Shown: positions 1,590-56,293, counted from the first letter of the stretch. The stretch is DNA of 64,000 bases from an uncultured Alphaproteobacteria bacterium (GCA_944390195.1 CALXOZ010000007.1:18443-82442); one strand, 5' to 3'. Notes: generated from the letters alone by a model not told the origin. Made by a program: numbers and translations.

Positions 1590-4500
1590 ATGTCAAAAAA
1601 AATTTTATGTTTACTGTTATTTTCGGGTATTGTCTTTTTCCATACTTCTGTTTATGCGGAATCTTCGCTGTTTGTCCGGCGTATGGTTCCCGAAGGAACA
1701 GAAGTCAAGCCCACGGATAAGATTGTTTTTGAATTCAGCGAACAGGTTGTCCCTTTAGGAAAGATGGAGCGTTCGGACAACCAAGTCCCGATTGACATCA
1801 AACCGCGATTGAATTGTCAGTGGCGTTGGTTGAACCAATCGTCATTGGGGTGTTTTTTGTCATCAAATGATGGTTTGAAGCCTTCGACTTCTTATCAAAT
1901 AGATGTTTTAAAAGGCTTTACGGCTTTATCCGGAGCGCAAATGGCAAGCAAACAGTCTTTTGTTTTGGAAACCGTCCGTCCCGAAATCAATCCGTCTTAT
2001 TCCCGTTTTATACGTTTTGTGAATCCCGAACGCCCTCAGTGGAAAATATACTTTAATACGGCGGCGGAACCGGAATCCGTTCAGAAACATATTTTTTTCG
2101 AGGTCGGGGATAAAAGGGTCGAAGTCCGTGTTACGCAAGAGCAATGTCAAACGGGAAAAAAGGACTGTTTTACGCAATACTTTGTTGAACCCGTTGAAGA
2201 TTTGGGGATAGACCGGTCTTATGAGTTGAGGTACGAAGCCGGCTTTAAATCCGTTCAAGGCGGTTCTTTGGACTCTCGGAAAGAAGGTGTGATCGGACGG
2301 GCGAAGACGTTGCCCGCATTTAAAGCCGAAGCATTGCAATGTTATGCAAAGGATTTTTCGTTAAAATCGTACACGCCGCAGGAAACAAGAGCAAACCCGC
2401 CGGAATGTTTGTTTGATTATCCTGTCAATATCGTGTTGTCCGGTGAAACGGTATTGGAAAATGTCGGGGATTTTTTAAAGACAAAGCCTCTATTGTCAAT
2501 TCAGGAAAGACCTCAAGTGTCGAACTTGATTTCGATGTATGCTCCGCAAGCGGAAAGTTTTTACAGTATTTCTCTGTCTGACCAATTGATTGACGTTTGG
2601 GGTTCGCCTCTTCAACAACCTGTCGAGTTTTTCTTCCGTTCCGGTTCGCGCAGTCCTCAATTGGATTTACCTTATTCTTCAGTGGTGTTGGAAAGCGGCG
2701 AAAAAACCAGAGCCGTTGGATATGCAACCAATTTAAATCAGGTCAAGATAGATTTTAAAGGGTTTGATGCGCAAAAAAGCATTTCCGGTTCATATGATAT
2801 CCCCGAGATTTCCTCTTTGATCAAAAATGAACCCTATCCGTTTGATTACGGCATTCGTTCCATGTTGAATGATAAAACAGGTTTTATAGCGGGGACTGTT
2901 AAATCTGTTCCTGAATTATCCGGCAATTATGTTTTTACGGCTTCGGTAACCCCGTGGCAGGTTGTCGCCAAAATCGGATGGAAAAACTCGTTGGTTTGGG
3001 TCGTCGATTTAAAAACCGGAAAGCCGGTTCGCGAGGCAACGGTCGAGTTATCCGCCCGTCCGCTTTTTTCTTCCGGTGACCACAAAGAGCAATTGCAACT
3101 GGTTCGCACGGATGAAACGGGGCGTGCCGTTTTAAAAGGATACGAAAAATTCGATCCGGAAGCTAAATTTTTAAACCAATGGGAACCGGATAAGGACTTT
3201 TTGTTTTTAACGGTTTCCAAAGGAAACGACATCGCCGTTCTTCCTTTGAAAAACGAGTTTTCCTTATCGGCGGGAAGCTTAAGCGATTGGGCTGTTTATA
3301 GTGTTTATTCTCCGGAACCTTATCTTTATTTGCGCGCTTTCGGCTTTACGCCGCAGGGAGTGTACCGTCCTGAAGATACAGTTGATTTTAAAATTTATGT
3401 TCGGCAAATAGACAATGAAGGAAAATCGGGGAAAGCCCCTGCAAGCGGTTATGATTTGATGGTAACGGATTCTTCTGGCAAAAGTGTTTACGAACAAAAG
3501 AATTTGTCTTTGTCGGAATTCGGAGCGTTTGACGGTGGTTTTTCATTGCCGTCGACGGCACCGAGTGGATGGTACAATGTTGTTTTAAAATATAAAGACG
3601 CTTCTTTGTATCCGATACGTTTTCTTGTTTCCGATTTTTCCGCTCCGTCATTCAAGTCTTCCACGGAAATCGATTCCGGTGTTGTGAATGCAAAGGAAAA
3701 AGTGGAAGTTGTTTCTCGCGCTTCGTTGTTTTCCGGTGGGGCGTATGCCAAAGCGAAAATGCGCCAAAGCGCTGTGCTGTCCTTTGCTTCCTTTTCTGTC
3801 AAGGTGGGGGATAAGGATTTCAGCTTCAATCCGGATCTGTCCAATGAAGATTATGCGTCGGAAATTCTGATTGATCAAGAAGGCAGCGGTGATGAAAAAG
3901 GAGAGTTAAGACAGACGTTCATTTTGCCTGTATCTGAAAAACCGCATGGGAAAATACGTTTTGAAACAAAAGTTTTTGATGATTCCGGACGTTCTGTTTC
4001 TTCTTTCGCCGTTGCGGATTATTTTGCCGTTGACAGGCTTGTCGGGTTGAGAAACGGAACGGAAACGGCTGTTGTCGGAAAGCCTGTCGATATGGAATAT
4101 GTCGTTGTCGATCCTCGAAAGAAACTTGTTGCTGGCGTTCCTGTCAATGTTGTTTTTTCTCGGAAAATAAACAAGCTGATACGCGAAAAGTCGGCAGGCA
4201 ACGCCTATTTGATGAAATATGTTCAGGAAGATCAAAAGGTCGCGGAATGTATGGGAATGAGCGCGACGGAAATACAAAAATGCTCTTTTATCCCTGAAAA
4301 AAGCGGCTTGTATAAGGCGACGGCGATTATTAACGGGTATTCTTCCGATTTGATGTTTTATGTCGACGGATCCGATTATGTTCCTTGGGCGTTTGCAGAA
4401 AACCGTTTGAAAATCGTTCCGGATAAAAAAGTGTATCAAACAGGAGACACCATTACTTTAACTGTGGAAAATCCTGTTCCGGGGGCTCAAGCGTTAATCA

Positions 4501-37194: not shown

Positions 37195-37212
37195 TATTGC
37201 CACAAATTCCAT

Positions 37213-37244
37213 AAAAACAGAGAGGGGAGCCTCTCTGTTTTTTT
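37213..37244 (+). terminator. Intrinsic terminator after eno.
   Basis: CAGAGAGG-ggag-CCTCTCTG stem followed by a 7-T run, 19 nt after the stop. An A-run precedes it, so it could act bidirectionally. Confidence 0.8.
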
Positions 37245-37845
37245 ATGGGGAAGATATGGTCTTTCCTTGTTTTGCAAAAACAGACAAGTGATCCTTGCTT
37301 GTTGAAGATAAATAAAATGTCGTAACAGACGAAGCCTGAAAACGGAAAGCGGATTATTTATAAGGCAAAAAAATACTTGGAAAAATCTTTTTATTTGAAG
37401 TTATTTAAAATCATATTTTATGGATCGTTAAATGCGAATAGAATTCAATTTGTTAAATATTATAAGTTTGAAATTTATGGATACGAGAATTGTTGTTTAT
37501 CTTATGAATTTATAGAAGCCTGTTATTTTTGTTTTGAAATTTTTTATGGTAAGAGGCTTTTATAAATGTTCTAAAAAATCCGGAATTGAAGTGGGACGAA
37601 GAAAGGCGGCTTATTTTGAAATGTTTCTCTTGTTTGCTCCTGTTACTTAAGTTTTGATGCAGTGATCTTATTTGAAAATTAAAGGTTTTTCAAAAACTTT
37701 CTGGTTGCCCTTTTTCCTCCGACGGAAATTCTTGCCGGATTGGAACAAAGAGGTGTCTTTGTGTTTTTTGTAGAATATCATCAATTTTTTATGATTGGAA
37801 AAATGATTAAAAGGCGGGGCGATAATTTAAAAGCGCTCCGGAAAC

Positions 37846-37870
37846 GGGTGGAGAGGGGGAGGGAGAGGGG
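37846..37870 (+). repeat. G-rich tract matching a canonical G-quadruplex motif (GGG-N6-GGGGG-N1-GGG-N3-GGGG).
   Basis: GGGTGGAGAGGGGGAGGGAGAGGGG is conspicuous within a roughly 900-bp AT-rich non-coding region. Confidence 0.5.
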
Positions 37871-38097
37871 AGTTTGGAAAGGCCGTCCGTTATCATATTA
37901 CAACTGAGAATTGGAATGGAGTGTGTTATAGGCTTATTATGGAAAAGTTTTAAAAGAAAATGAAATATTCGGAGAAAAACGTCAAAATCATTTAAAAATC
38001 TTTTTGTTTTTTCCGGTTGATATTAGTCTTATGGCATATGTTGCAGTTCTTTTGAACTGTTTTGAAAAGCAATGGGTGTTACACAGTCTGTTTGGCA

Positions 38098-38124
38098 TGA
38101 AAAATCCCGCATTTTATGCGGGAT
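38098..38124 (-). terminator. Intrinsic terminator of the 38150-38602 lipoprotein gene.
   Basis: Minus-strand ATCCCGCAT-aaa-ATGCGGGAT stem followed by TTTTTC, 26 nt after the stop. Confidence 0.65.
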
Positions 38125-38149
38125 CTCTTTTCGGTAATTGAATGAAAAT

Positions 38150-38602
38150 CTATTCTTCGCTGAAAATACGATAAGCCTCTGCCGGATCGTCAGTGTCCTG
38201 TACTTTCAAGTCCATCGGGCAAAGTCCAGTTTTCGTCCGGTTGAGTATATTATCCAATACTTGGTCGGCGCTGTATTTTATACCATATTTTTCATAGATT
38301 TTAATTGCCGGCTTAGATATGACCGGTGTGTAAACTTCTTTGACTTGTCCGTAGACGTGTAATAACGCTGATGCTTTTCCAACAATGCGGTCTGCGACAA
38401 AAGCGTCTTTGAACGTGCCGTCATTCAAACGGATTAATAAAGGATCAAGGCCTCTTTCATCATAAAATGTTGTTTTTCCGTCTTTATATACGATAAGGGT
38501 ATGTTCCTTTAACTGATTACGAAGGAAATCCGTGTCAGGACGTTTTGACATTGAACAAGCTATTAATAAAATAGTCATCAAGCCGATAAAAAAAGATTTC
38601 AT
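38150..38602 (-). CDS. Hypothetical lipoprotein.
   Basis: 150 aa. Signal peptide plus lipobox LIACS. No family recognised. It has its own terminator and is flanked by long non-coding DNA. Confidence 0.5.
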   Translation of the reverse strand: MKSFFIGLMTILLIACSMSKRPDTDFLRNQLKEHTLIVYKDGKTTFYDERGLDPLLIRLNDGTFKDAFVADRIVGKASALLHVYGQVKEVYTPVISKPAIKIYEKYGIKYSADQVLDNILNRTKTGLCPMDLKVQDTDDPAEAYRIFSEE

Positions 38603-39090
38603 AATATCAACTCCATAAAAAAGGACATTAGAGAATACAAACCTAAAAAAGTTTTAAGTCAATACAAAAAAGTACATATTTTAAAGGTTTTTTTTACTGT
38701 TGAAAATCTGTTTTACGGATTTATGTAACAGAATAAAGAAAAAGCTATTTTAATCATTGTATGACAATAATGTAGAGACTGATTGATTTGCCATAAAGCG
38801 AAGGGGAAACATAATCTGAAAGAAGGGAAAAAGAAGTCTGTTTATGAAAGATTTCTTCGCCTATTTCCAGTTTTTAAGGTTAATAAAGGTATAAAATGAG
38901 TATAAAGAAGCTAGTTATAAATTTTAATTTTTTATAATATTGTCATCTTTAGCCTTAAAAAATCAATTTGATATAAAGCACTTTGTGGATTTCCATTCAT
39001 TTTTAAAAATCAGGAATGCATTGAAAATATTATTGAATTTTTGTGTGGGCAATGTCATTCAGTTAAAAAAATCTGTCATACGAAAAACGG

Positions 39091-39275
39091 TTTTTCATAT
39101 ATTTATTGGTCTGTATTTTTTGTTGCCGGTTTTATGGTAAAAATTGAACGCCTATGATAGGCATGACAACACGATCGTCTTTAAGCTGATTTAATTGTAG
39201 GAAATTGTTCTGTCATGTATTGGTGAATGTTAAAAATATAAAATAATACAGGATCATCTTTAAAGATGCTTTTTT
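39091..39275 (+). repeat. Copy 1 of a dispersed composite non-coding element, ending in palindrome plus T-run. Candidate sRNA or MITE-like repeat.
   Basis: Three blocks are nearly identical to the reverse complement of 49554-49681. Block A (39091-39134) is TTTTTCATATATTTATTGGTCTGTATTTTTTGTTGCCGGTTTTA. Block B (39215-39237) is ATGTATTGGTGAATGTTAAAAAT. Block C (39252-39275) is GATCATCTTTAAAGATGCTTTTTT. Copy 1 carries an extra 80-bp insert between blocks A and B. Confidence 0.6.
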
Positions 39276-39892
39276 AACAAAATATCCCAAGCTCAAAGCG
39301 AGAGACGCTTTTTATTTCCGTTCAGTCTGGCGGAGTGGCAACCTCTTTGGAGTTTGAACCGCAGGCACGATTTAAAAGACGCTTTCTTAACAAGTGTCTC
39401 CAACACAAGTTTACATCCATACTTTTCTTACATATATGGATATCACCGTATTTTTCTGTAAATCCCCCGTACTCCCATAAACCGGAAATTACCTTATTTA
39501 TCCGACTTTTCATTCCTCATTTTTCCCAAAAACGATCGAACAGAACGCGTTTAATAAATCACAACCGCTTAAAAAAGATGTGCTCGCCGCCTCACTGGGC
39601 TAAACAACCTCTCCATAAACATCAAAAAAACAAAATATACAAAATACTTTATCCCATTAATCTCAGAGAATATTTTCTCTCGATCATTCAATAAACAGGA
39701 ATATACCTAACCACTAAAACACTTCACACTCTTTCACAGGCAATACAAAAAAATGTTTTCTATTCTTTTTTATAAAAAACATCTCATCTCTGTTCATTCC
39801 TACTAAAAAAACATACCTAAGCTCATTCCTAAAAAATAAGGGCGAATCCTGTGAAACTTTTTTATTCTATAAAACCGCAGAATTGTTTTTCA

Positions 39893-39925
39893 CAAAAAAA
39901 ATCCTCCAAGACAGGAGGATTTTTC
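39893..39925 (-). terminator. Intrinsic (bidirectional) terminator, about 200 nt downstream of the pmm-like gene.
   Basis: AAAAAAATCCTCC-aagaca-GGAGGATTTTT. The 7-8 bp GC-containing stem has an A-run on one side and a T-run on the other. Confidence 0.55.
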
Positions 39926-40077
39926 GTTTTACGGATATAAAAAAACATTTAAGCCTTTTGAAATGATGAGTTATAGCCCACTTCTTTTATTGTTTCAAAA
40001 GATAAATATCTTTGCCAGTACTTTAAAAGACATATATCAAATGTAAATCTTTTAAATTTATTCTAGAATAAAGACAA

Positions 40078-40123
40078 AATATGGCAAAAATATGGTTTGA
40101 ATTATGGCGAATTATGGCAAGGA
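40078..40123. repeat. Iteron-like direct repeats (A/T)TATGGC(A/G)A, four copies at about 10-14 bp spacing.
   Basis: aaatATGGCAAAaatATGGtttgaaTTATGGCGAaTTATGGCAAgg, immediately 3' of the pmm stop (40132). Confidence 0.4.
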
Positions 40124-40131
40124 AGCCTTAT

Positions 40132-43159
<3,028 letters not shown>

Positions 43160-43290
43160 CTAAGAACTTTTAATAAGAATCATTGTTTAAGAATCATCTG
43201 AAAAATACTTTGTAACAGGATTACGAATCCGAGCCCGTCTGTCAAGAAAAGCTTGTTTTTAGCTTGTTTTATGCGGTATTAAAGCCGGTC

Positions 43291-44097
43291 TTACGAAGAG
43301 ATGTCTTCTCCTATTGCCTGCAAAATGGCGCGTAATTCTTGTCTTGCTGCGATGTGAGGCATTGACATTGAGATTCCCACCTTGGGTTTTCCGACATCAA
43401 GAAGCGTCAATCCTTTTAAAAAAAGTTCTCTGAACACGACCCGTTCCCCCAATCCGGACAAAGCTGTAAAATTGATTCTTTTACCCAAGGCTTCCAGCAA
43501 CTTCCAAATCAATTTTTCATTTCGTGTCGAAACATGCATCATACGGTTGCGCAAAACGAACCATCTTGTTTGAGGCTTTTTTTGCGAAGCGCGTTGTTGG
43601 CGTGCCTGCCAAACGGTTTGAGCATAATGTGCCGGAGATTTGATCGTCAGTGTTTCCGGTTCGATTTGAGCCAGAACATCCAAATCAATCAGACTGTCGT
43701 TCAACGGTGTAATCAAAACGTCTGCGACAACATGAGCCAAACGGAACAAATAGCTGTCTGCCCCCGGTGTGTCGATGATGATCACATCGTTTTCTTTTTG
43801 CAATTTGTCCAGTTGTTTTATAAAAGCGTCTTCATCTTCTTTTCTTTGTTGGGGATCGGGGTTTGCGCGCACAGTTACACTAAGGTGTACGGGCAGTTCC
43901 AAAGCGACATGATGCAATTCGGCATAATCCGCCCTGTTTTGAATATAATGAGTCAACGTCCCTTGACGCCCGTCCAGATCAATTGAAGCGACCGTCTTTT
44001 TTTGATGTAGCAACCAAGCTATCAAATGCATTGCCAACGTTGATTTTCCGGTACCGCCTTTTTCGTTACCGATTACAATTATTTTCCCTTTCGGCAT
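43291..44097 (-). CDS. mipZ: ParA/MinD-superfamily ATPase of the MipZ type (division-site positioning).
   Basis: Track ORF runs to 44145. The ATG at 44097 (MPKGKIIVIGNEKGGTGKSTLAMHL) gives a deviant Walker A GNEKGGxGKST, which is characteristic of MipZ rather than ParA (KGGVGKTT). About 268 aa. Confidence 0.7.
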   Translation of the reverse strand: MPKGKIIVIGNEKGGTGKSTLAMHLIAWLLHQKKTVASIDLDGRQGTLTHYIQNRADYAELHHVALELPVHLSVTVRANPDPQQRKEDEDAFIKQLDKLQKENDVIIIDTPGADSYLFRLAHVVADVLITPLNDSLIDLDVLAQIEPETLTIKSPAHYAQTVWQARQQRASQKKPQTRWFVLRNRMMHVSTRNEKLIWKLLEALGKRINFTALSGLGERVVFRELFLKGLTLLDVGKPKVGISMSMPHIAARQELRAILQAIGEDISS

Positions 44098-44176
44098 AAG
44101 TATCCCCGCTTTTTTTTGAACAGATCCTAACCAGCGGAAGACCAAAATTCAAGATTTTTAAATTCGATAAAAAAAT

Positions 44177-44206
44177 CACGATTTATTTGTTATTTTTTTC
44201 ACGATT
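44177..44206 (+). promoter_or_regulatory. Direct repeat TCACGATT(T/A)A, two copies spaced 22 bp apart, upstream of hydC.
   Basis: TCACGATTTA at 44177-44186 and TCACGATTAA at 44199-44208. The two-helical-turn spacing suggests a direct-repeat operator. Confidence 0.3.
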
Positions 44207-44213
44207 AAGACTT

Positions 44214-44257
44214 GCTTTTAACGCATCGAAAGTTTAAAACTTAAAATGCGTAAAAGC
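44214..44257 (+). promoter_or_regulatory. Nested 44-bp palindrome 60-100 nt upstream of the hydC start, either an operator or a 5'-UTR hairpin.
   Basis: GCTTTTAACGCAT-cga-AAGTTTAAAACTT-aaa-ATGCGTAAAAGC. The outer arms are complementary apart from one extra A. The inner 13-bp palindrome is perfect. Confidence 0.35.
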
Positions 44258-44315
44258 CGAAACAATCAAGACCGATTTTAACCGGCTACCCGTCATACTT
44301 TTTGGAGAAAGCTAA

Positions 44316-44822
44316 ATGAGTGAAACGACAGGGCATGAAATATCAGCCTTTGATAAAATAGAAAAGGTCAAGGAGATTTTGGATAAGAATGGTCGCCAAA
44401 GTTCTCGATTGATCCCCATTTTGCAGGAAGTACAGGAAGTTTACCGTTACCTGCCTAAGGAAATTATGAATTATGTTGCACAAGCGCTCGGCATTCCTGC
44501 CGGTCGTGTTTACGGTGTTGCGACGTTTTACGCCCACTTTTCTTTAGACCCTAAAGGGCGTTACTTAATCCGTTTATGCGACGGCACAGCCTGTCATGTA
44601 CGCGGATCGGAACCGATATTGCACGCTTTACGTGACAAATTGGGATTGAGCGCGGAAAAACCAACAACCGATGATATGATGTTTACAATTGAAACCGTTT
44701 CCTGTCTGGGCGCTTGCGGTTTGGCTCCGGTCGTCGTTGTGAACGAAGACGTTCATGGACAAATGACACCGGATAAAGCGGTTAAAATGATTGATGATAT
44801 TTTGCAGGCGGAGAATTCTTGA
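44316..44822 (+). CDS. hydC: NuoE-like [2Fe-2S] thioredoxin-fold subunit of a trimeric [FeFe] hydrogenase (HydC/HndA type).
   Basis: 168 aa. Cys pattern C...C-x35-CxxxC (RLCDGTACHVRGS...VSCLGACGLAP) typical of NuoE/HydC. The stop overlaps the hydB start. Confidence 0.8.
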   Translation: MSETTGHEISAFDKIEKVKEILDKNGRQSSRLIPILQEVQEVYRYLPKEIMNYVAQALGIPAGRVYGVATFYAHFSLDPKGRYLIRLCDGTACHVRGSEPILHALRDKLGLSAEKPTTDDMMFTIETVSCLGACGLAPVVVVNEDVHGQMTPDKAVKMIDDILQAENS

Positions 44823-46723
44823 TGACTGAAAATTTGGAAAAAATTGCTTCTGACTACAAAGCAATGCACGACACCGTAACCCGCCGTATGGTAATTTGCG
44901 CAGGGACGGGGTGTATTGCAAACGGATCGTTGAAACTGTACGAAGCCCTTTTAAAAGAAATTCAAAAAGCCGGTATCAATGTCGCTGTTGAATTGAAATC
45001 CGAAGACCATAATAAAAAATCTCTGTTATCCAAAAGCGGCTGTCAGGGATTTTGTCAGATGGGACCTTTGTTGACAATAGAACCGGACGGTATTTTATAT
45101 TGTCGCGCACATGCGGCGGATGCTGCTGAAATCGTAGAAAAAACACTTAAAAATAACGAATTGATTGACCGTTTGGTCTATAAAAACCCGACGGACGGTT
45201 CTCATTGCCGCGGGACGAACGACATTCCGTTTTATACACGCCAACGTCGTACCGTTTTAAAAGCCTGCGGTCATGTCAATCCGGAAGATATTCGCGAATA
45301 TATTTATCATGACGGTTATAAAGCTGCTCAAAAAGCCTATACGGAAATGAGTGATGAAGACGTTTGCAAAGAAATTTTGGATTCCGGTTTGCGCGGACGT
45401 GGCGGCGGCGGTTTCCCGACAGGTTTGAAATGGGATTTGACCCGTAAAGTCAAAGGTGAGAAAAAATACGTTATTTGTAACGCTGATGAAGGCGATCCGG
45501 GGGCTTTTATGGATCGTTCCGTTATGGAAGGCAATCCTCACTCCGTTATTGAAGGAATGATGATCGCCGCAAGGGGAATCGGTGCCGATGAAGGTTACAT
45601 TTATGTCCGTGCCGAATATCCCTTGGCTGTCAAGCGTATGCGTAAAGCCATTGAGGACGCTCAAAACATCGGCGTTCTGGGACACGACATCTTCGGTTCC
45701 GGTAAAAATTTCATCCTGCACGTCATGGAAGGGGCGGGCGCGTTCGTTTGCGGTGAAGAAACAGCATTAATGGCTTCCATTGAAGGCTCGCGCGGTATGC
45801 CGCGTCCGAAACCGCCTTTCCCAGCTCAGTCGGGGTTGTGGGGAAAGCCGACGGTCATTAATAACGTTGAAACTTTAGCAAGCGTTCCGATGATCATTCT
45901 GCACGGTGCCGCGAATTACCGCTCCGTCGGTACGCAAAAATCCCCTGGAACAAAAACATTTGCAGTAACGGGGCATGTCGCAAACACAGGCTTGATCGAA
46001 GTCCCCTTTGGAACGACTTTGCGTGAAATCATCTTTGATATCGGCGGCGGCGTCTTGAACGCAAAAGGCGAAGTCGATAACGATAGTTTCAAAGCCGTGC
46101 AAATCGGCGGTCCGTCCGGCGGATGCCTGACTGCGGAACATTTGGATTTGCCGATTGATTTCGATTCTTTGCGTTCTGCAGGCGCTATGGTCGGTTCGGG
46201 CGGTCTTGTCGTCATGAACAAAAACACTTGCATGGTCAGTGTCGCCCGTTTCTTTATGCAATTTACGCAAAACGAATCATGTGGCAAATGTACTCCGTGC
46301 CGTGAAGGAACAAAACAAATGCTCGCCCTGCTGGATGATATCATGGCGGGTCGCGCTACCGAAGAAACTCTGGATCTGTTGGAAGAAACCGCTAAAACCG
46401 TCCAAAAAGCCTCTTTATGCGGTTTAGGTAAGACAGCTCCGAATCCGGTATTGTCCACTTTACGTTATTTCCGGGACGAATATTTGGCGCATGTACGCGA
46501 TAAAACATGCCCAACCGGTCAATGCAAAGCTTTGGCAAAACCGGAAATCGATCCGATTCTGTGCCGCGGTTGTACCGCGTGCGCACGGAAATGTCCTGTC
46601 GGGGCCATATCTGGAACGGTTAAAAAACCACATGTTATTGATCCGACAAAATGTATTAAGTGCGGTGTTTGCGCCGCAACGTGTAAGTTCGGTGCCGTAA
46701 AAGGCATCGCTCCCCGTGCTTGA
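44822..46723 (+). CDS. hydB: NuoF-like NADH-binding flavoprotein subunit of a bifurcating [FeFe] hydrogenase (HydB/HndC type).
   Basis: The track ORF starts at TTG 44819, but the ATG at 44822 (TGATG overlap) is preferred. An N-terminal thioredoxin-like 2Fe-2S domain is followed by the NuoF core (GLRGRGGGGFPTGLKW FMN/NADH site; the CxxCxxC N3 cluster appears as ESCGKCTPCREG). Two 4Fe-4S ferredoxin motifs sit at the C-terminus. Confidence 0.85.
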   Translation: MTENLEKIASDYKAMHDTVTRRMVICAGTGCIANGSLKLYEALLKEIQKAGINVAVELKSEDHNKKSLLSKSGCQGFCQMGPLLTIEPDGILYCRAHAADAAEIVEKTLKNNELIDRLVYKNPTDGSHCRGTNDIPFYTRQRRTVLKACGHVNPEDIREYIYHDGYKAAQKAYTEMSDEDVCKEILDSGLRGRGGGGFPTGLKWDLTRKVKGEKKYVICNADEGDPGAFMDRSVMEGNPHSVIEGMMIAARGIGADEGYIYVRAEYPLAVKRMRKAIEDAQNIGVLGHDIFGSGKNFILHVMEGAGAFVCGEETALMASIEGSRGMPRPKPPFPAQSGLWGKPTVINNVETLASVPMIILHGAANYRSVGTQKSPGTKTFAVTGHVANTGLIEVPFGTTLREIIFDIGGGVLNAKGEVDNDSFKAVQIGGPSGGCLTAEHLDLPIDFDSLRSAGAMVGSGGLVVMNKNTCMVSVARFFMQFTQNESCGKCTPCREGTKQMLALLDDIMAGRATEETLDLLEETAKTVQKASLCGLGKTAPNPVLSTLRYFRDEYLAHVRDKTCPTGQCKALAKPEIDPILCRGCTACARKCPVGAISGTVKKPHVIDPTKCIKCGVCAATCKFGAVKGIAPRA

Positions 46724-46740
46724 ATGAAAGGTGAAGCTTG

Positions 46741-48723
46741 ATGACTGAAAAGAAAACTCTGTTCATTGACGGCAAAGAAGTCGTAATCGAAAATGAACGC
46801 AATATTTTAGAGCTGTGCCGTAAAGCGGGGATCGATATCCCGACGTTTTGCTACCAGCCGGAATTGAGTATCTATGGCGCATGCCGGCTATGCTTGGTTG
46901 AAATCGAAGGCAGAGGTATTTTGTCTTCGTGTTCCACACCTCCTGAAGCAGGCTTGAAAATAAAAACAAATACGGATGAAATCCGTCAATTGCGCCGTAC
47001 GACAATGGAATTGCTGTTGGCGTCCCATCCTCAAGATTGTTTGAAGTGCGGGAAAAGTACACACTGCAAATTGCAGGAAATCGCCCGTAAGGTGGGAGTA
47101 AAAGAAATCCGTTACAAACATTCGGTCAAAGACCTGCCGGTAGATAACAGTTCTTATTCTTTGGTGCGTGATCCCGCAAAGTGTATTTTGTGTGGCAATT
47201 GCGTGCGGATGTGCGCTGAAATTCAGGGAATCGGAGCCGTCAACTTTGCCAATCGCGGATCAAATAGTACGGTTATTACGGCGTTTGGTAAGGATATGGC
47301 TAAAACGGAATGTGTCAACTGCGGTCAATGTGCCGCCGTTTGCCCGACCGGAGCGTTACAAATCAAGTCTGAAATTGATGAAACAATGAAAGACATCAAC
47401 AATCCCGAAAAGATAACGGTTGTCCAAATAGCTCCGGCCGTCCGTGTCGCCATAGCAGAAGAATTTGGTCTGCCTGCCGGTGTGGATTCAACGAAAAAGA
47501 TTGTTTCCGCTTTAAAAAAGATCGGTGTCGATTATGTTTATGATACCAACTTTACAGCAGACATGACGATTGTCGAGGAAGCCACTGAATTTGTACAACG
47601 CTTACAGAACGGCGGCACATTCCCGATGTTTACCTCATGTTGTCCGGCATGGATCAAATATGCGGAAACGTATTATCCGTCTTTATTAAAGAACATCAGT
47701 TCCTGTCGTTCTCCGCAAGGAATGTTTGGCGCAATCGTGCGTAAAGCGATGCCTGGCGTTACCGGAAAAGACAACAAAGATATCGTTTCGATTTCCATTA
47801 TGCCCTGCACGGCCAAAAAGTTCGAAGCCCGTCGCGATCAGTTCATTCATGACGGCAAAGCGGAAATTGATCATGTCCTGACAACGCAAGAATTGGCTGA
47901 GATGTTGAAATCAGCCGGTATCAATCTGGCGGAAATCGATGATGTCGAATTGGATATGCCGTTAGGCATGTACACCGGTGCCGGCGTTATTTTCGGCGTT
48001 ACCGGAGGCGTGATGGAGGCCGTGTTGCGTTTTGCTGCGGAAAAAGTCGGCGGCGTCAAAGACGCAATTGAATTTAAAAACGTTCGCGGTTTTGAAGGCA
48101 TTCGTGAAGCTGAAGTCGAATTAAACGGCAGAACGTTCAAATTAGCGGTTGTTCATGGGTTGGCGAATGCCGGAAAAGTGGCTCAATCCGTTATTGATGG
48201 AACATGTAAGTATGATTTGATCGAAGTGATGGCTTGCCCGATGGGATGTGTCGGCGGTGCTGGACAGCCTGTCAGCGAAGGTTGTGTCAAAAAGAAACTT
48301 CGTGCTCAAGGATTATATAAGGCTGATGAATCGTGTGCATTGCGTAAATCTCAAGAGAACACAGCTGTTTATGACGTTTACGAAAAATACTTTGAAGGTG
48401 GTCCCGCAACACATGCGGCGCATGAGAATCTACATACGACATATGTTTGCCGACCGAAAACGGAAATGGAAATGAGCATCAATAAGGCTGATAAGGATGC
48501 TGTTCGAGTCGAGCTGAATTTATCAGGTGAAAATATGCGCAAAGGTGTTGAAAACCTGATGGGTGACGTTTTGGCGAAAATCCGTGAGAACGACTTGCAA
48601 AAACGAACAAAAGTCGTAGTTACTTTTGGACATACGGGAGAGGATCCGATGGTTTCAGTCGCTGGAAAAGCGGTTAATCCTGATGTGGACGATGTTATAA
48701 AAGCCATTATTGAGAATAAATAA
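46741..48723 (+). CDS. hydA: [FeFe]-hydrogenase catalytic subunit (group A, HydA) with N-terminal 2Fe-2S and 4Fe-4S domains.
   Basis: All three H-cluster motifs are present: L1 TSCCPAW, L2 MPCTAKKFE and L3 EVMACPMGCVGGAGQP. N-terminal plant-type 2Fe-2S (CRLC...C) and F-cluster CxxCxxCxxxCP motifs. Track ORF starts at TTG 46738; the ATG at 46741 sits after a GGTGAAG SD. Confidence 0.85.
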   Translation: MTEKKTLFIDGKEVVIENERNILELCRKAGIDIPTFCYQPELSIYGACRLCLVEIEGRGILSSCSTPPEAGLKIKTNTDEIRQLRRTTMELLLASHPQDCLKCGKSTHCKLQEIARKVGVKEIRYKHSVKDLPVDNSSYSLVRDPAKCILCGNCVRMCAEIQGIGAVNFANRGSNSTVITAFGKDMAKTECVNCGQCAAVCPTGALQIKSEIDETMKDINNPEKITVVQIAPAVRVAIAEEFGLPAGVDSTKKIVSALKKIGVDYVYDTNFTADMTIVEEATEFVQRLQNGGTFPMFTSCCPAWIKYAETYYPSLLKNISSCRSPQGMFGAIVRKAMPGVTGKDNKDIVSISIMPCTAKKFEARRDQFIHDGKAEIDHVLTTQELAEMLKSAGINLAEIDDVELDMPLGMYTGAGVIFGVTGGVMEAVLRFAAEKVGGVKDAIEFKNVRGFEGIREAEVELNGRTFKLAVVHGLANAGKVAQSVIDGTCKYDLIEVMACPMGCVGGAGQPVSEGCVKKKLRAQGLYKADESCALRKSQENTAVYDVYEKYFEGGPATHAAHENLHTTYVCRPKTEMEMSINKADKDAVRVELNLSGENMRKGVENLMGDVLAKIRENDLQKRTKVVVTFGHTGEDPMVSVAGKAVNPDVDDVIKAIIENK

Positions 48724-48739
48724 AAACGAATAGTGCAAT

Positions 48740-48772
48740 AAAGCCCTCTGTGCAAGTCAGAGGGCTTTTTGT
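48740..48772 (+). terminator. Intrinsic terminator of the hydCBA operon.
   Basis: AAAGCCCTCTG-tgcaagt-CAGAGGGCTTT stem followed by TTTT, 17 nt after the hydA stop. Confidence 0.8.
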
Positions 48773-49290
48773 ATATGGGACATTTTGTACTGAAAGGTGA
48801 TTATAAAACAAAAGAAGTCAACATACATTTTAGAGAAATATCTGAAGATAAATATTAAAGTTCAAAATAAAGAGTATGTTTAGGAAAAATGCGAAAGGAG
48901 ATAAAAAACATTTTTTTTCATTGTAGGTGGAATACAGTGATGTGTTTAAGCATATTCCGGTTTATCGAATAACTGTTTTTTTTTGAGACCGATTGGAAGA
49001 TTCGATTTTATATATTCCAGCTATGCCAGAGAGATTGTTTTGGCAAATGGTCGATGAGGAACACCTGATATTTCAAATCTTTTTTTAACGGTTGTGATTT
49101 GACAAATGTGGTTTATTCGATTGTTTTCATGATAATGAAGGATAAAAAAACAAATAAATAAGATGCATTTTCGTTTTAAGGGGTAAATTGTTTTCAAGTT
49201 TATGAAGGATGAAAGAGGATGGGGAAAGAGTCAGAAGTACGAGAATATCCGGAAATGCAAGAAACATATGAACAGAACCGTGCACTTGGG

Positions 49291-49548
49291 ACACCTTGTT
49301 AAGAAGGCGTCTCTTAAGGCTTTTGAATAATTCGAAAAACGTAACAGTTGAGAGCGAATAGTGGTCTTTAACTTTATATTCGGTACACCTTGTTAAGAAG
49401 GCGTCTCTTAAGGCTTTTGAATAATTCGAAAAACATAACAGTTGAGAGCGAACAGTGGTCTTTAACTTTATATTCGGTACACCTTGTTAAGAAGGCAGCT
49501 CTTAAAGCATTTGAATAATTCGAAAAACGTAACAGTTGAGAGCGAACA
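49291..49548. repeat. Tandem array of a 94-bp unit, about 2.75 copies, non-coding.
   Basis: Units begin at 49291, 49385 and 49479; the third is truncated after about 70 nt. Identity between units is 95% or higher. Each carries an internal palindrome TTAAGA-aggcgtc-TCTTAA and TTCGAA. The 94-bp period is not a multiple of 3. The track ORF 49374-49562 lies inside the array and is spurious. Confidence 0.9.
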
Positions 49549-49553
49549 AAGGG

Positions 49554-49681
49554 AAAAAGCATCTTTAAAGATGATCTTGCATTGTTTTAAACATTTTTAA
49601 CATTCCGCCAATACATAACCAAACACTTCCTTATATTAAAACCGGCAACAAAAAATACAGACCAATAAAATATATGAAAAA
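49554..49681 (-). repeat. Copy 2 of the dispersed composite element (blocks A, B, C), lying 83-210 nt downstream of the mutL stop on the minus strand and abutting the 94-bp tandem array.
   Basis: The reverse complement matches copy 1 blocks A (49637-49681), B (49593-49616) and C (49554-49576). Block C, read on the minus strand, is GATCATCTTTAAAGATGCTTTTT, a palindrome plus T-run. It could double as the mutL terminator. Confidence 0.6.
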
Positions 49682-49763: not shown

Positions 49764-51596
49764 TTATTCTCTTCGTCCGAATAATTTTTCAATGTCTTTT
49801 AGTTTCAATTCAATATATGTCGGGCGTCCGTGAATGCATTGACCGGAATAGGGGACGGCTTCCATTTGCCGTAACAATGAGTTCATCTCTGAAACATCAA
49901 GCGTTTTGCCCGCACGAACAGAAGTATGACATGCCATTGTCGCCGCGATTTTCTTTATCCGTTCTGTAAGCGCCATATCACTGCCGAATTCGATCAATGT
50001 GTCTGCTATATCGGTAATTAACGTTTTAACGTTTGTTTCTCCTAAAATCGCGGGTATTGCTCGAACTAAAACGGCATCTGTTCCAAAAGGTTCAAACAGA
50101 AGCCCCGTTTTTTCCAATTCATTTTTTTGCTTGAGGAATGCATCGCATTTTTCACCGGATAATTCTACGATTTCGGGTAGTAAAAGGTATTGTGCCGGTG
50201 CGTTTCCCTCTTGCATATTTTTTTTGATTTTTTCATAAGTCAGACGTTCATGTGCGGCATGTTGGTCGACAATGGCAATTCCATCTTGTGTTTGTGAAAT
50301 AATATATGTTTTGTGCAATTGTGCTCTGGCTAATCCCAAAGGGGGAAAAATATCCGGTTCCGATTGTTGATGCTTGTCAATATCAACGGTTTCCTGACTG
50401 ATAGGAGCGGAAAATAACTCTTCAGCATTAAACAAAACTCTGGTTTCTTTTAAAGAAGGGGTTGATTTTGCATGATACCGGAACGATCCGTTTTTAAACG
50501 GTAGGGAAAACTTTTTTAATGACGTTGACGACGGTGAAGGAAAAACAGGTGGGGCTTCGACAGCGACTTTTAAGGCCGTATCGGACAAAGTTGACGAAGT
50601 GCGAAAAGCTGAACCCATTAAAGCTTGTCGTACAGCTGTGATAATCATTCCCCTGACAGCTTGAGAGTTTCTGAAACGGACTTCCGCTTTTGTCGGATGA
50701 ACGTTAACATCGACATCTTCCGGTGGAATCGTTAAAAACAGTACGACAACAGGGAAACGGTCTGATGCTATTAACTCTTGATAAGCAACTTTAATCGCAC
50801 TGAACAACACCTTATCGCGGACAGGGCGATTGTTAACAAAAAAATACTGAGATGCGGCGGTCGATTTGTTCAAAGTGGGAATTCCGATAAATCCGTTTAA
50901 ATGAATATCTTCCTTTTGAATATCCACCGGAACTGCGTTATCACTGAATTCTTTTCCGATGACATCGGTGATGCGTTCGATTTTATTGTTTGATAAAATG
51001 GGTTTTAATTCCAGACGTTTCTTCTTTTCGTCGGATAAAGTAAAACCAACATGAGGATGGGCTAATGCCAATTTTTCAATAATTTCTTGAATATAGCTTG
51101 TTTCCGTTTGTGCGGATTTCAAAAATTTCAATCGGGCAGGGACAGCATAAAACAAATCCCTTACCTCTACCCGTGTACCGACCGGAGCACTTGCCGGTTC
51201 GGGATCATATTTTTTTCCGCCTTCGACAAATAACGTCCATGCCGTATCCATTGTTGCGGTTCTGGACGTAATGCGCATGCGTGACACGGAGGCAATGGAG
51301 GGTAAAGCTTCGCCTCTGAATCCTAAAAAACGTATGTCGAATAAATCATCGTCCGGCAGTTTTGAGGTCGCAAAACGTTCGACTGCCAAATTCAATTCTT
51401 CAACCGTCATGCCTTTGCCGTTGTCTATGACCGTTAAAGCCGCTTTACCGGCTTCATTCAAAATGATGTCGATCTTTGTGGCTTGAGCGTCCAAGGCGTT
51501 TTCAATCAATTCTTTTACCGCCGATGCCGGACGTTCCAAAACTTCTCCGGCGGCGATGCGGTTGACCAATGTCGGCGGTAAAAGACGCAATGTCAT
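49764..51596 (-). CDS. mutL: DNA mismatch repair protein MutL.
   Basis: 610 aa. The GHKL ATPase motifs are LRLLPPTLVNRIAAGEVLERPASAVKELIENALDA, DNGKGM and GFRGEAL. The C-terminal dimerisation domain is present. Confidence 0.9.
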   Translation of the reverse strand: MTLRLLPPTLVNRIAAGEVLERPASAVKELIENALDAQATKIDIILNEAGKAALTVIDNGKGMTVEELNLAVERFATSKLPDDDLFDIRFLGFRGEALPSIASVSRMRITSRTATMDTAWTLFVEGGKKYDPEPASAPVGTRVEVRDLFYAVPARLKFLKSAQTETSYIQEIIEKLALAHPHVGFTLSDEKKKRLELKPILSNNKIERITDVIGKEFSDNAVPVDIQKEDIHLNGFIGIPTLNKSTAASQYFFVNNRPVRDKVLFSAIKVAYQELIASDRFPVVVLFLTIPPEDVDVNVHPTKAEVRFRNSQAVRGMIITAVRQALMGSAFRTSSTLSDTALKVAVEAPPVFPSPSSTSLKKFSLPFKNGSFRYHAKSTPSLKETRVLFNAEELFSAPISQETVDIDKHQQSEPDIFPPLGLARAQLHKTYIISQTQDGIAIVDQHAAHERLTYEKIKKNMQEGNAPAQYLLLPEIVELSGEKCDAFLKQKNELEKTGLLFEPFGTDAVLVRAIPAILGETNVKTLITDIADTLIEFGSDMALTERIKKIAATMACHTSVRAGKTLDVSEMNSLLRQMEAVPYSGQCIHGRPTYIELKLKDIEKLFGRRE

Positions 51597-56002: not shown

Positions 56003-56293
56003 TCAATTATCCGCTTGAGCGTCAGTGTTTGTAAAAGGTTGCTTTTTCGTTTGAGTGTCAGTATTTGTAAAAGGCTGTTTTTTTGTTTGTTTCGATTTTT
56101 TTGTCGTCTTTTTTGTTTTTTTCTTGACCGTTTTTGCAGGTTTCGGTGCGCGTAACAAATAATCGGGCGGTAAAACCAGCGGGTTGTTCGTTGAAATACC
56201 TTCAGCTTCTGGACCTCGATCCTTGTCCAAAGAATAACGATCCGCACATCCTGAAAGGCAAAGCAACAAAAACAAACAAAATATTTTTTTCAT
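56003..56293 (-). CDS. Small lipoprotein, DUF3035-like, with an internal 12-aa tandem duplication.
   Basis: Start MKKIFCLFLLLCLSGC, with lipobox LSGC. PLVLPPDY resembles the DUF3035 motif, from memory. Lys-rich tail containing QTKKQPFTNTD(T/A) twice. Confidence 0.45.
   Translation of the reverse strand: MKKIFCLFLLLCLSGCADRYSLDKDRGPEAEGISTNNPLVLPPDYLLRAPKPAKTVKKKTKKTTKKSKQTKKQPFTNTDTQTKKQPFTNTDAQADN
56017..56088. repeat. 36-bp in-frame tandem duplication inside the DUF3035-like lipoprotein gene.
   Basis: Units 56017-56052 and 56053-56088 (GAGCGTCAGTGTTTGTAAAAGGTTGCTTTTTCGTTT and GAGTGTCAGTATTTGTAAAAGGCTGTTTTTTTGTTT). Together they encode QTKKQPFTNTD twice. Confidence 0.8.

Follow-up and report, generated by a model that had tools for sequence, protein, structure and literature searches.

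In a 64,000-nt window of DNA from an uncultured Alphaproteobacteria bacterium (GCA_944390195.1 CALXOZ010000007.1:18443-82442; "the window" denotes this whole stretch, as analyzed here), a 94-nt tandem array lies between the genes hydA and mutL (49291-49548) inside one of two inverted copies of a non-coding element. The array varies in copy number among strains of the species, and the gene block bracketed by the two element copies is found in both orientations. In our judgement, the array is probably a non-coding minisatellite carried by lineage-specific inverted repeats under general recombination, that is, inversion, conversion and unequal exchange. What appeared as an odd-looking repeat is a recombination hotspot of already well-known kinds, in which a variable-number tandem repeat (VNTR), usable as a strain marker, is combined with inverted-repeat-mediated inversion of a metabolic gene block. 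The inversion polymorphism affects 9-10 kb of genes for fermentation and hydrogen metabolism in a gut alphaproteobacterium that is known only from metagenomes.

Structure and strain variation of the 94-nt array

Tandem Repeats Finder (TRF), applied to the 64-kb window, detected the array with a period of 94 nt, 2.7 copies (2.74 units), 95% matches, no indels and a score of 474, which was the top score of all tandem repeats in the window (the runner-up scored 115). A second repeat search returned the same three units with identities of 100, 97 and 78%, the last unit being partial. These results are in accordance with a first-pass annotation of the same DNA, which had described a 94-bp unit present about 2.75 times at an identity of at least 95% and, in each unit, the palindrome TTAAGA-N7-TCTTAA plus TTCGAA: a pattern search located the former in all three units (starts at 49299, 49393 and 49487; 49299-49505 in total), and every unit also carries the TTCGAA/GAATAATTC palindrome. 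With the relaxed pattern TTAARA-N7-TYTTAA, matches in the 64-kb window were restricted to the array units and to position 39372. An open reading frame (ORF) of 62 aa on the minus strand (49374-49562) spans the array. It has no Pfam match and is regarded as an artefact; the 94-nt period is not a multiple of 3, and frame-consistent conservation is absent. The array is thus non-coding, as had been assumed. A regularly spaced repeat containing a palindrome is also a property of CRISPR arrays; here, however, the units are contiguous at the 94-nt period with no unique spacers, and no cas domains were found among the annotated neighbours within ~10 kb, in line with the earlier view that this is not a CRISPR.

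For the strain comparison, 36 contigs of the same species, assembled in several projects and with several assemblers, were collected via exact-protein matches to MutL variants, DUF1893, the phosphoglucomutase PGM465 and HydA; all strain data are short-read metagenome assemblies. Compared unit by unit, the array comprises 2.74 units in the window, 2.73 units in L086, 4.74 units in L096/L085 and 2.74 units plus a 26-nt internal duplication in L099/L084. Contig L104 breaks inside the array and contributes one further complete unit with intact palindrome arms, plus an incomplete second unit. Three variant sites (GCGTC/GCAGC, AAGGCT/AAAGCA and ACG/ACA) are re-assorted among the units, and the extra units of L096 carry diagnostic variants. 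Copy-number change together with shuffled unit variants is what slippage, unequal exchange or conversion among the 94-nt units would be expected to produce, and the range of 2.7 to 4.7 units among same-species contigs substantiates the earlier proposal of a minisatellite or VNTR. Head-to-tail non-coding units, strain-variable copy number and shuffled variants are likewise found in bacterial intergenic VNTRs or minisatellites of the kind used for multiple-locus VNTR analysis (MLVA) typing. The array differs from these in being located inside one member of an inverted-repeat pair, the paralogous copy having one degenerate unit, and in belonging to an uncultured species whose variation is known from metagenome assemblies only.

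A second VNTR, which is coding, was observed 6 kb away in a small lipoprotein gene (MKKIFCLFLLLCLSGC...; 56003-56293, minus strand), where an in-frame 66-nt tandem repeat (22 aa, K/T-rich) overlaps the second-strongest TRF match of the window (56015-56089). One copy of this repeat is present in the window, L082 and L083 (96 aa), two in L081 (118 aa) and three in L085 (140 aa), with the gene at 5238-5594 in L081, 5304-5594 in L082 and 5172-5594 in L085. The strain variation of this coding repeat indicates that tandem-repeat instability is general in the species.

Inverted element copies and orientation of the enclosed block

Short-word blastn comparison of the hydA-mutL gap, which is 1040 nt long and ORF-free, with the 1529-nt gap at 38603-40131 revealed paralogy that is collinear and inverted. 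Five blocks were aligned between copy 1 and copy 2 of the element: 39091-39134 with 49681-49637 (98%), 39190-39274 with 49640-49554 (82%), 39372-39443 with 49317-49245 (73%), 39474-39582 with 49182-49074 (73%) and 39686-39763 with 48970-48901 (70%). Accordingly, copy 2 (48901-49681, minus strand) consists of a core and the body B2, which holds the array, and copy 1 (39091-39790, plus strand), its inverted paralogue, of a core and the body B1 with a single degenerate unit. The element is non-coding and ~0.7-0.8 kb long, and its two copies, both seen within the 64-kb window, are diverged (~72% identical) and 9 kb apart. Since B1 and B2 are homologous to either side of the array, the latter is inside the element and not adjacent to it; the first-pass annotation, in which the array was fused to or abutted a short A-B-C element, has to be corrected in this respect, because the homology runs past the array into the two last-named blocks. 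The array is an internal tandem duplication in B2, of which B1 keeps one degenerate unit. The degenerate relative that had been placed at ~39300-39399 is thus real, although partial, as it corresponds to the third block (39372-39443, 73%). It contains the palindrome TTAAAA-N7-TCTTAA (39372-39390), the lone degenerate counterpart of the array-unit palindrome.

The outer part of each copy is formed by the core, 44 bp in copy 1 (TTTTCATATATTTATTGGTCTGTATTTTTTGTTGCCGGTTTTA; 39091-39134, plus strand) and 44/45 bp in copy 2 (49637-49681, minus strand), where it is 98-100% identical to that of copy 1. Its end at 49681, 83 nt from the mutL stop, agrees with the start assigned earlier to copy 2. In some strains, diverged homology reaches ~75 nt further outward than the core, to ~49757 (the mutL stop) for copy 2, as seen in L090/L098, and to ~39020 for copy 1; the core is therefore an identity island within a longer diverged repeat. 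Both copies also have a 14-nt palindrome CATCTTTAAAGATG (49560-49573, followed by a minus-strand T-run; copy-1 counterpart at 39255-39268), which in the window occurs only in the two elements, and a 12-nt motif CGGTTGTGATTT (49089-49100; reverse complement at 39556-39567 in copy 1).

Between the element copies lie pgm465, pgm545, a gene for a MipZ-family ATPase and hydCBA. The flanking genes of the array are those named in the first-pass annotation, namely the gene for the [FeFe]-hydrogenase large subunit (46738-48723, plus strand), which is the last of the hydC-hydB-hydA operon, and mutL (49764-51596, minus strand). With X1 and X2 denoting the DUF1893-side and mutL-side flanks, and Y1 and Y2 the pgm-side and hydA-side flanks, these segments, both bodies and the core were mapped onto every contig. 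The block was found in both orientations and in three arrangements among the same-species contigs. The window type, DUF1893-X1-core-B1-Y1-[pgm..hydA]-Y2-B2-core-X2-mutL, was recovered independently in L098, L102 and L105. The second arrangement is a core flip: L083 and L117, which come from different samples, show mutL-X2-core-B1-Y1-pgm, and L086 shows the reciprocal linkage DUF1893-X1-core-B2, its sample also containing hydA-Y2-B2. Junction alignments place the flank switch of these contigs exactly within the 44-bp core, and the core-to-core segment inverted as compared to the window (39135-49636) comprises B1, pgm465, pgm545, the mipZ-like gene, hydC, hydB, hydA and B2. In the third arrangement, class I, with the order DUF1893-X1-core-B1-Y2'-[hydA..pgm]-Y1'-B2-core-X2-mutL, the inner gene block (39830-48900) is inverted while the bodies stay put; a single 80-kb contig (L096/L085) shows this arrangement in full, and parts of it are found in L084, L088, L093, L101, L104 and L106. 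The inner junctions of class I carry diverged alleles, which indicates an older event. Their interpretation as simple reciprocal products was considered and rejected, as the alleles are diverged and the breakpoints different.

Exchange was not confined to the core and the inner junction. Hybrid B2/B1 bodies that switch inside the common 12-nt motif were found in two datasets (L110, L113), an X2-like, conversion-like patch is located beside X1 in L090 and L098, and two samples would fit genomes carrying two B1-type copies, i.e., with possible homogenisation. Moreover, the core itself carries substitutions in some strains (L086, L090). Overall, an inverted paralogous pair flanks a segment that is present in both orientations, with the junctions inside the repeats. 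That the array lengths and linkages are products of short-read mis-assembly over repeats is considered highly improbable. Short-read metagenome assemblies were used throughout, several contigs are covered only ~3x, and assembly stages with low k may be misled by a 44-bp repeat; however, the linkages recur in samples and projects independent of each other and with different assemblers (MEGAHIT k87, SPAdes-style NODE contigs, Logan), the class I junctions have their own diverged alleles on an 80-kb contig, the 12-nt motif at which the hybrids of two datasets switch is too short for graph collapse, and the extra units of L096 differ by diagnostic variants.

Following this, we propose that the 94-nt array arose via tandem duplication of a segment inside B2 and that the inverted copies serve as substrates for the general recombination and replication-slippage machinery of the cell. 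Unequal exchange or slippage between units would lead to copy-number change and shuffled unit variants, crossing-over between the inverted copies would flip 9-10.5 kb, with a minimum of one event each at the 44-bp core and the inner ends, and gene conversion would give rise to hybrid and possibly homogenised copies; conversion is probably also what maintains the identity of the core. We favor general homologous recombination and slippage because multiple exchange points as well as conversion and hybrid products were found and no recombinase is encoded nearby: in precomputed Pfam annotations, neither Phage_integrase nor Resolvase nor other recombinase domains are listed in the block or in ~10 kb on either side. 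We infer a general process (RecA-type recombination or slippage) and not a programmed one, and the array itself would have no dedicated function. Chromosomal inversion by recombination between inverted repeats such as rrn operons, insertion sequence (IS) copies or long inverted repeats (LIR) is exemplified by the Lactobacillus crispatus LIR (PMC12199158), and chromosomal inversions have been found in S. pneumoniae D39 (PMC6212727). In common with such repeat-mediated inversions, inverted paralogues bracket a segment in both orientations, and exchange takes place at identity patches and is accompanied by conversion and hybrids. The repeats described here differ in being ~0.8 kb long, non-coding and ~72% identical, in being neither rrn nor IS nor prophage, and in that the best-defined crossover lies in a 44-bp patch. 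On this reading, the locus represents a clean natural example in which identity patches as short as 44 bp, set in diverged non-coding repeats, are enough for inversion and conversion to recur.

The promoters of both operons are located in the central divergent region of the block, and the terminators are also inside it, namely the intrinsic terminator of hydCBA (48740-48768, plus strand) and that of the pgm operon (39893-39928), a hairpin (TCCTCC-AAGAC-AGGAGGA) flanked by T/A runs on either side, which is kept in sister species and at which sub-threshold terminator-type Rfam matches cluster. As the block contains its own divergent promoters and terminators, a flip alters gene orientation and not operon structure, and the inversion is probably nearly neutral; an effect on replication-transcription co-orientation is speculation.

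Some observations weigh against general recombination acting on an array without function. Contigs assembled at k larger than the core end exactly at the core boundary (L087, L106) or 10 nt beyond it (L092), which suggests that both linkages coexist in single samples, as in frequent or programmed switching; in such contig ends and in mixed linkages within samples, within-strain switching and coexisting strains look alike. The core is 98-100% identical whereas the neighbouring sequence is ~60-80% identical or unalignable, which also fits a selected recombinase or protein-binding site. Additionally, the palindrome arms are constant in 16 complete units from four sources while the spacer toggles between GCGTC and GCAGC, which hints at constraint, and a genome that is otherwise rather compact has kept the two ~0.8-kb elements as well as further long AT-rich gaps. 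Finally, the array lengths and the linkages over the 44-bp repeat may include short-read assembly error.

These points raise the question of programmed site-specific inversion (a large inverton or a shufflon-like switch), in which a recombinase encoded elsewhere would target the 44-bp core and reversibly flip the hydrogenase/PGM/MipZ cassette, together with B1 and B2, for population heterogeneity. We regard this as improbable, despite the fact that the core is a near-perfect identity island in diverged repeats, clean reciprocal core-junction products are present in at least three samples, contigs from assemblies with k=87 and similar values stop precisely where the core begins or ends, and incompatible linkages are found within samples, e.g., ERZ16268171 (L084 vs L109) and ERZ24773511. 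Mixed linkages in one sample may simply reflect coexisting strains. No recombinase is annotated in the block and its ~10-kb surroundings, and the inner junction, the 12-nt motif and the conversion patch are further places of exchange. Furthermore, the core has no internal dyad symmetry on sequence inspection and tolerates substitutions (L086, L090), and complete operons with their own promoters and terminators are inverted, so no obvious ON/OFF output would result. A comparison with invertons, i.e., programmed invertible DNA with short inverted repeats and a dedicated invertase (PMC11892184; bioRxiv 10.1101/2023.03.11.532203; PMC7672463), leads to a similar picture: short identical inverted sequences, here the 44-bp core, surround DNA present in both orientations in a gut organism, but the invertible DNA comprises 9-10.5 kb of housekeeping or fermentation operons and not a promoter or gene fragment, no invertase is found nearby, exchange extends beyond the core and there is no evident expression switch. 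If switching were programmed, the range of invertons, now promoters and gene fragments, would widen to include entire metabolic cassettes. A more elaborate version, to which we assign a slightly lower likelihood still, is that a trans-encoded recombinase acting at the core reversibly flips the 10-kb cassette (electron-bifurcating-type HydABC, two phosphoglucomutases and MipZ) with its output tuned by the minisatellite; if this were true, the two bodies, B1 and B2 with its VNTR, would trade places on each flip, one coming to lie upstream of the gene for the DUF1893 lipoprotein and the other antisense to mutL.

Coding, RNA and protein-binding potential of the element

In a six-frame comparison of stop-free segments, peptide similarity between the two element copies was found in every frame on both strands, which reflects conservation at the DNA level and not a conserved ORF, and a Pfam search at E<=1 with all ORFs in the elements returned nothing.

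The first-pass annotation had alternatively considered a small RNA gene with repeated modules. In a broader form of this idea, each element would be a long non-coding or leader/antisense RNA gene with the 94-nt units as RNA modules, and transcripts might head from hydA towards mutL, being antisense to the 3' end of mutL, or in copy 1 enter DUF1893. The strand transcribed in that direction is G-rich and C-poor, as are the coding strands here, and a G-C pair of the unit stem is replaced by G-U between B2 and B1 on the hydA-to-mutL transcript strand only. Moreover, the minus strand of copy 1 folds somewhat better than shuffled sequences (z = -2.7); the other three whole-element folds of both copies and strands gave z values of -0.5, -1.2 and -0.9, so that the signal is weak and inconsistent, and the unit folds were no better than those of shuffles (z = +0.5 and -1.0). 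The consensus fold of B1 and B2 calculated with RNAalifold reached -28 to -42 kcal/mol as compared to -106 to -173 kcal/mol for the single sequences, with a structure conservation index of 0.24-0.29 (column-shuffle controls were included). Rfam 15 at gathering thresholds gave no match in the whole window, and at E<=10 the two gaps yielded only terminator-like noise outside the elements; tRNA and tmRNA genes were not found. A promoter or terminator common to both element copies was not found either, and the element is absent from sister species and from every DNA collection scanned: an exact 22-nt core pattern had 0 matches in the genome, metagenome and viral contig collections, and a 22-nt degenerate unit motif had 0 matches in the metagenome and viral contig collections. 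On this evidence an RNA gene is unlikely, and the proposal of repeated small RNA modules is not supported, given the missing Rfam match, the shuffle-like unit folds and the missing common promoter or terminator. With respect to transcription from the other side, no canonical terminator was predicted downstream of mutL; the CATCTTTAAAGATG palindrome is the sole terminator-like candidate there and is weak. The lack of a terminator between mutL and the array would be in favor of an RNA role, and read-through from mutL into the element and array is plausible.

Binding of a dimeric protein to the palindromes (TTAAGA-N7-TCTTAA, GAATAATTC/TTCGAA and CATCTTTAAAGATG), with the element acting as a centromere- or iteron-like platform or as an operator array whose copy number tunes occupancy, was judged very unlikely. 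In support of it, the palindromes are confined to the two elements within 64 kb, the arms are constant in all complete units examined while the spacer is variable, and a gene for a ParA/MipZ-family ATPase is part of the flanked block. However, a ParB or other DNA-binding gene is not adjacent, the MipZ-like gene is kept in sister species without the element, copy 1 has a single degenerate site with one arm mutated, the motif is absent from the scanned collections, and recent duplication and concerted evolution can explain the invariance of the arms. In sopC of the F plasmid, 43-bp tandem repeats each carry a short inverted repeat. Tandem units with a short palindrome each and a nearby ParA-family ATPase gene are thus common to sopC-type centromere or iteron arrays and the 94-nt array, which differs from them in its chromosomal location, its longer unit, the absence of a ParB/SopB partner gene, and an ATPase that is a conserved MipZ homologue present also where the array is absent. 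Additionally, neither DnaA boxes nor CtrA boxes were found in the gaps, and the GC skew does not change sign at the locus.

Lineage history and gene neighbourhood

Comparison with sister species (L114-L116), whose HydA is 89-92% identical, showed that the pgm-pgm-mipZ-hydCBA block is kept and that 39914-48709 of the window aligns at 76-79%, whereas homologues of X1, the core, B1, B2 and X2 are not found in L114-L116. In L116, the DUF1893 gene follows hydA after 47 nt on the same strand. This indicates that the adjacency of hydA and DUF1893 in the core-flip and class I arrangements is ancestral and that the arrangement of the window is a derived inversion. Judging from MutL, the window belongs to an uncultured gut or rumen "Alphaproteobacteria" lineage, and one protein cluster matches it at 99% identity. 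In the closest species-representative metagenome-assembled genomes (MAGs), MutL is 71-73% identical, and synteny stops at the mutL stop, with downstream gaps of 67-285 nt that hold no element. There are no exact-protein matches on record for the MutL and P0122 proteins of the window itself. The absence of the element from sister species and the end of synteny in the closest MAGs identify the element copies as lineage-specific additions at synteny breakpoints.

An origin that would be compatible with general recombination as the process acting today is that the elements are a decayed mobile or duplicated segment, such as a non-autonomous element or an IS or prophage scar, which came to lie at either end of the block when the chromosome of this lineage was rearranged. 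We consider this a possible but rather doubtful scenario. The elements are lineage-specific, lie exactly at the synteny breakpoints relative to sister species and closest MAGs, and are AT-rich (33-36% GC in the gaps as compared to 43-48% in the coding sequence of the region). On the other hand, terminal inverted repeats were not detected beyond chance-level short inverted matches, none of which is common to both copies; no transposase remnant, pseudogene or Pfam match emerged from the ORFs listed in the elements and adjacent gaps; distant blastn searches gave no similarity to plasmids or phages; and two copies are visible in the DNA covered, i.e., the window and the overlapping contigs.

Irrespective of origin, the locus is useful for strain typing and for the reading of MAG assemblies of the lineage. 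It explains the assembly breaks of the species downstream of mutL, hydA, pgm and DUF1893, and it calls for caution, as MAGs of the species may hold the block in either orientation.

Further features were observed in the vicinity. The DUF1893/TM1506 protein (38150-38602, minus strand) has a lipoprotein-type signal (…LLIAC), and the position of its gene directly after hydA on the same strand in L116 suggests a functional link with the hydrogenase operon. Upstream, between the enolase gene and DUF1893, a third long ORF-free and AT-rich gap is found (37195-38149; 955 nt, ~35% GC) with a hairpin terminator at 38104-38124; it has no Rfam match and no convincing ORF, and different small ORFs are called there in different strains. 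In class I strains a 54-aa ORF is called just 3' of hydA (L096 2590-2754, L106 5501-5665, L088 810-974); its window counterpart (~48775-48860) has only 27 aa, and the ORF is probably spurious. The second phosphoglucomutase (41516-43153, minus strand) has 501 aa in L084 (4674-6179) versus 544-545 aa elsewhere, which could be due to a frameshift, a truncation or an assembly error. Finally, just past the pgm465 stop, at 40066-40120, about four copies of a 10-11-nt motif (GAATTATGGC/AATATGGCAA) are clustered; the cluster is kept in sister species (L116 at ~1040-1090, L114 at ~3340-3390) though it is non-coding, with an operator array or a small RNA as possible explanations.

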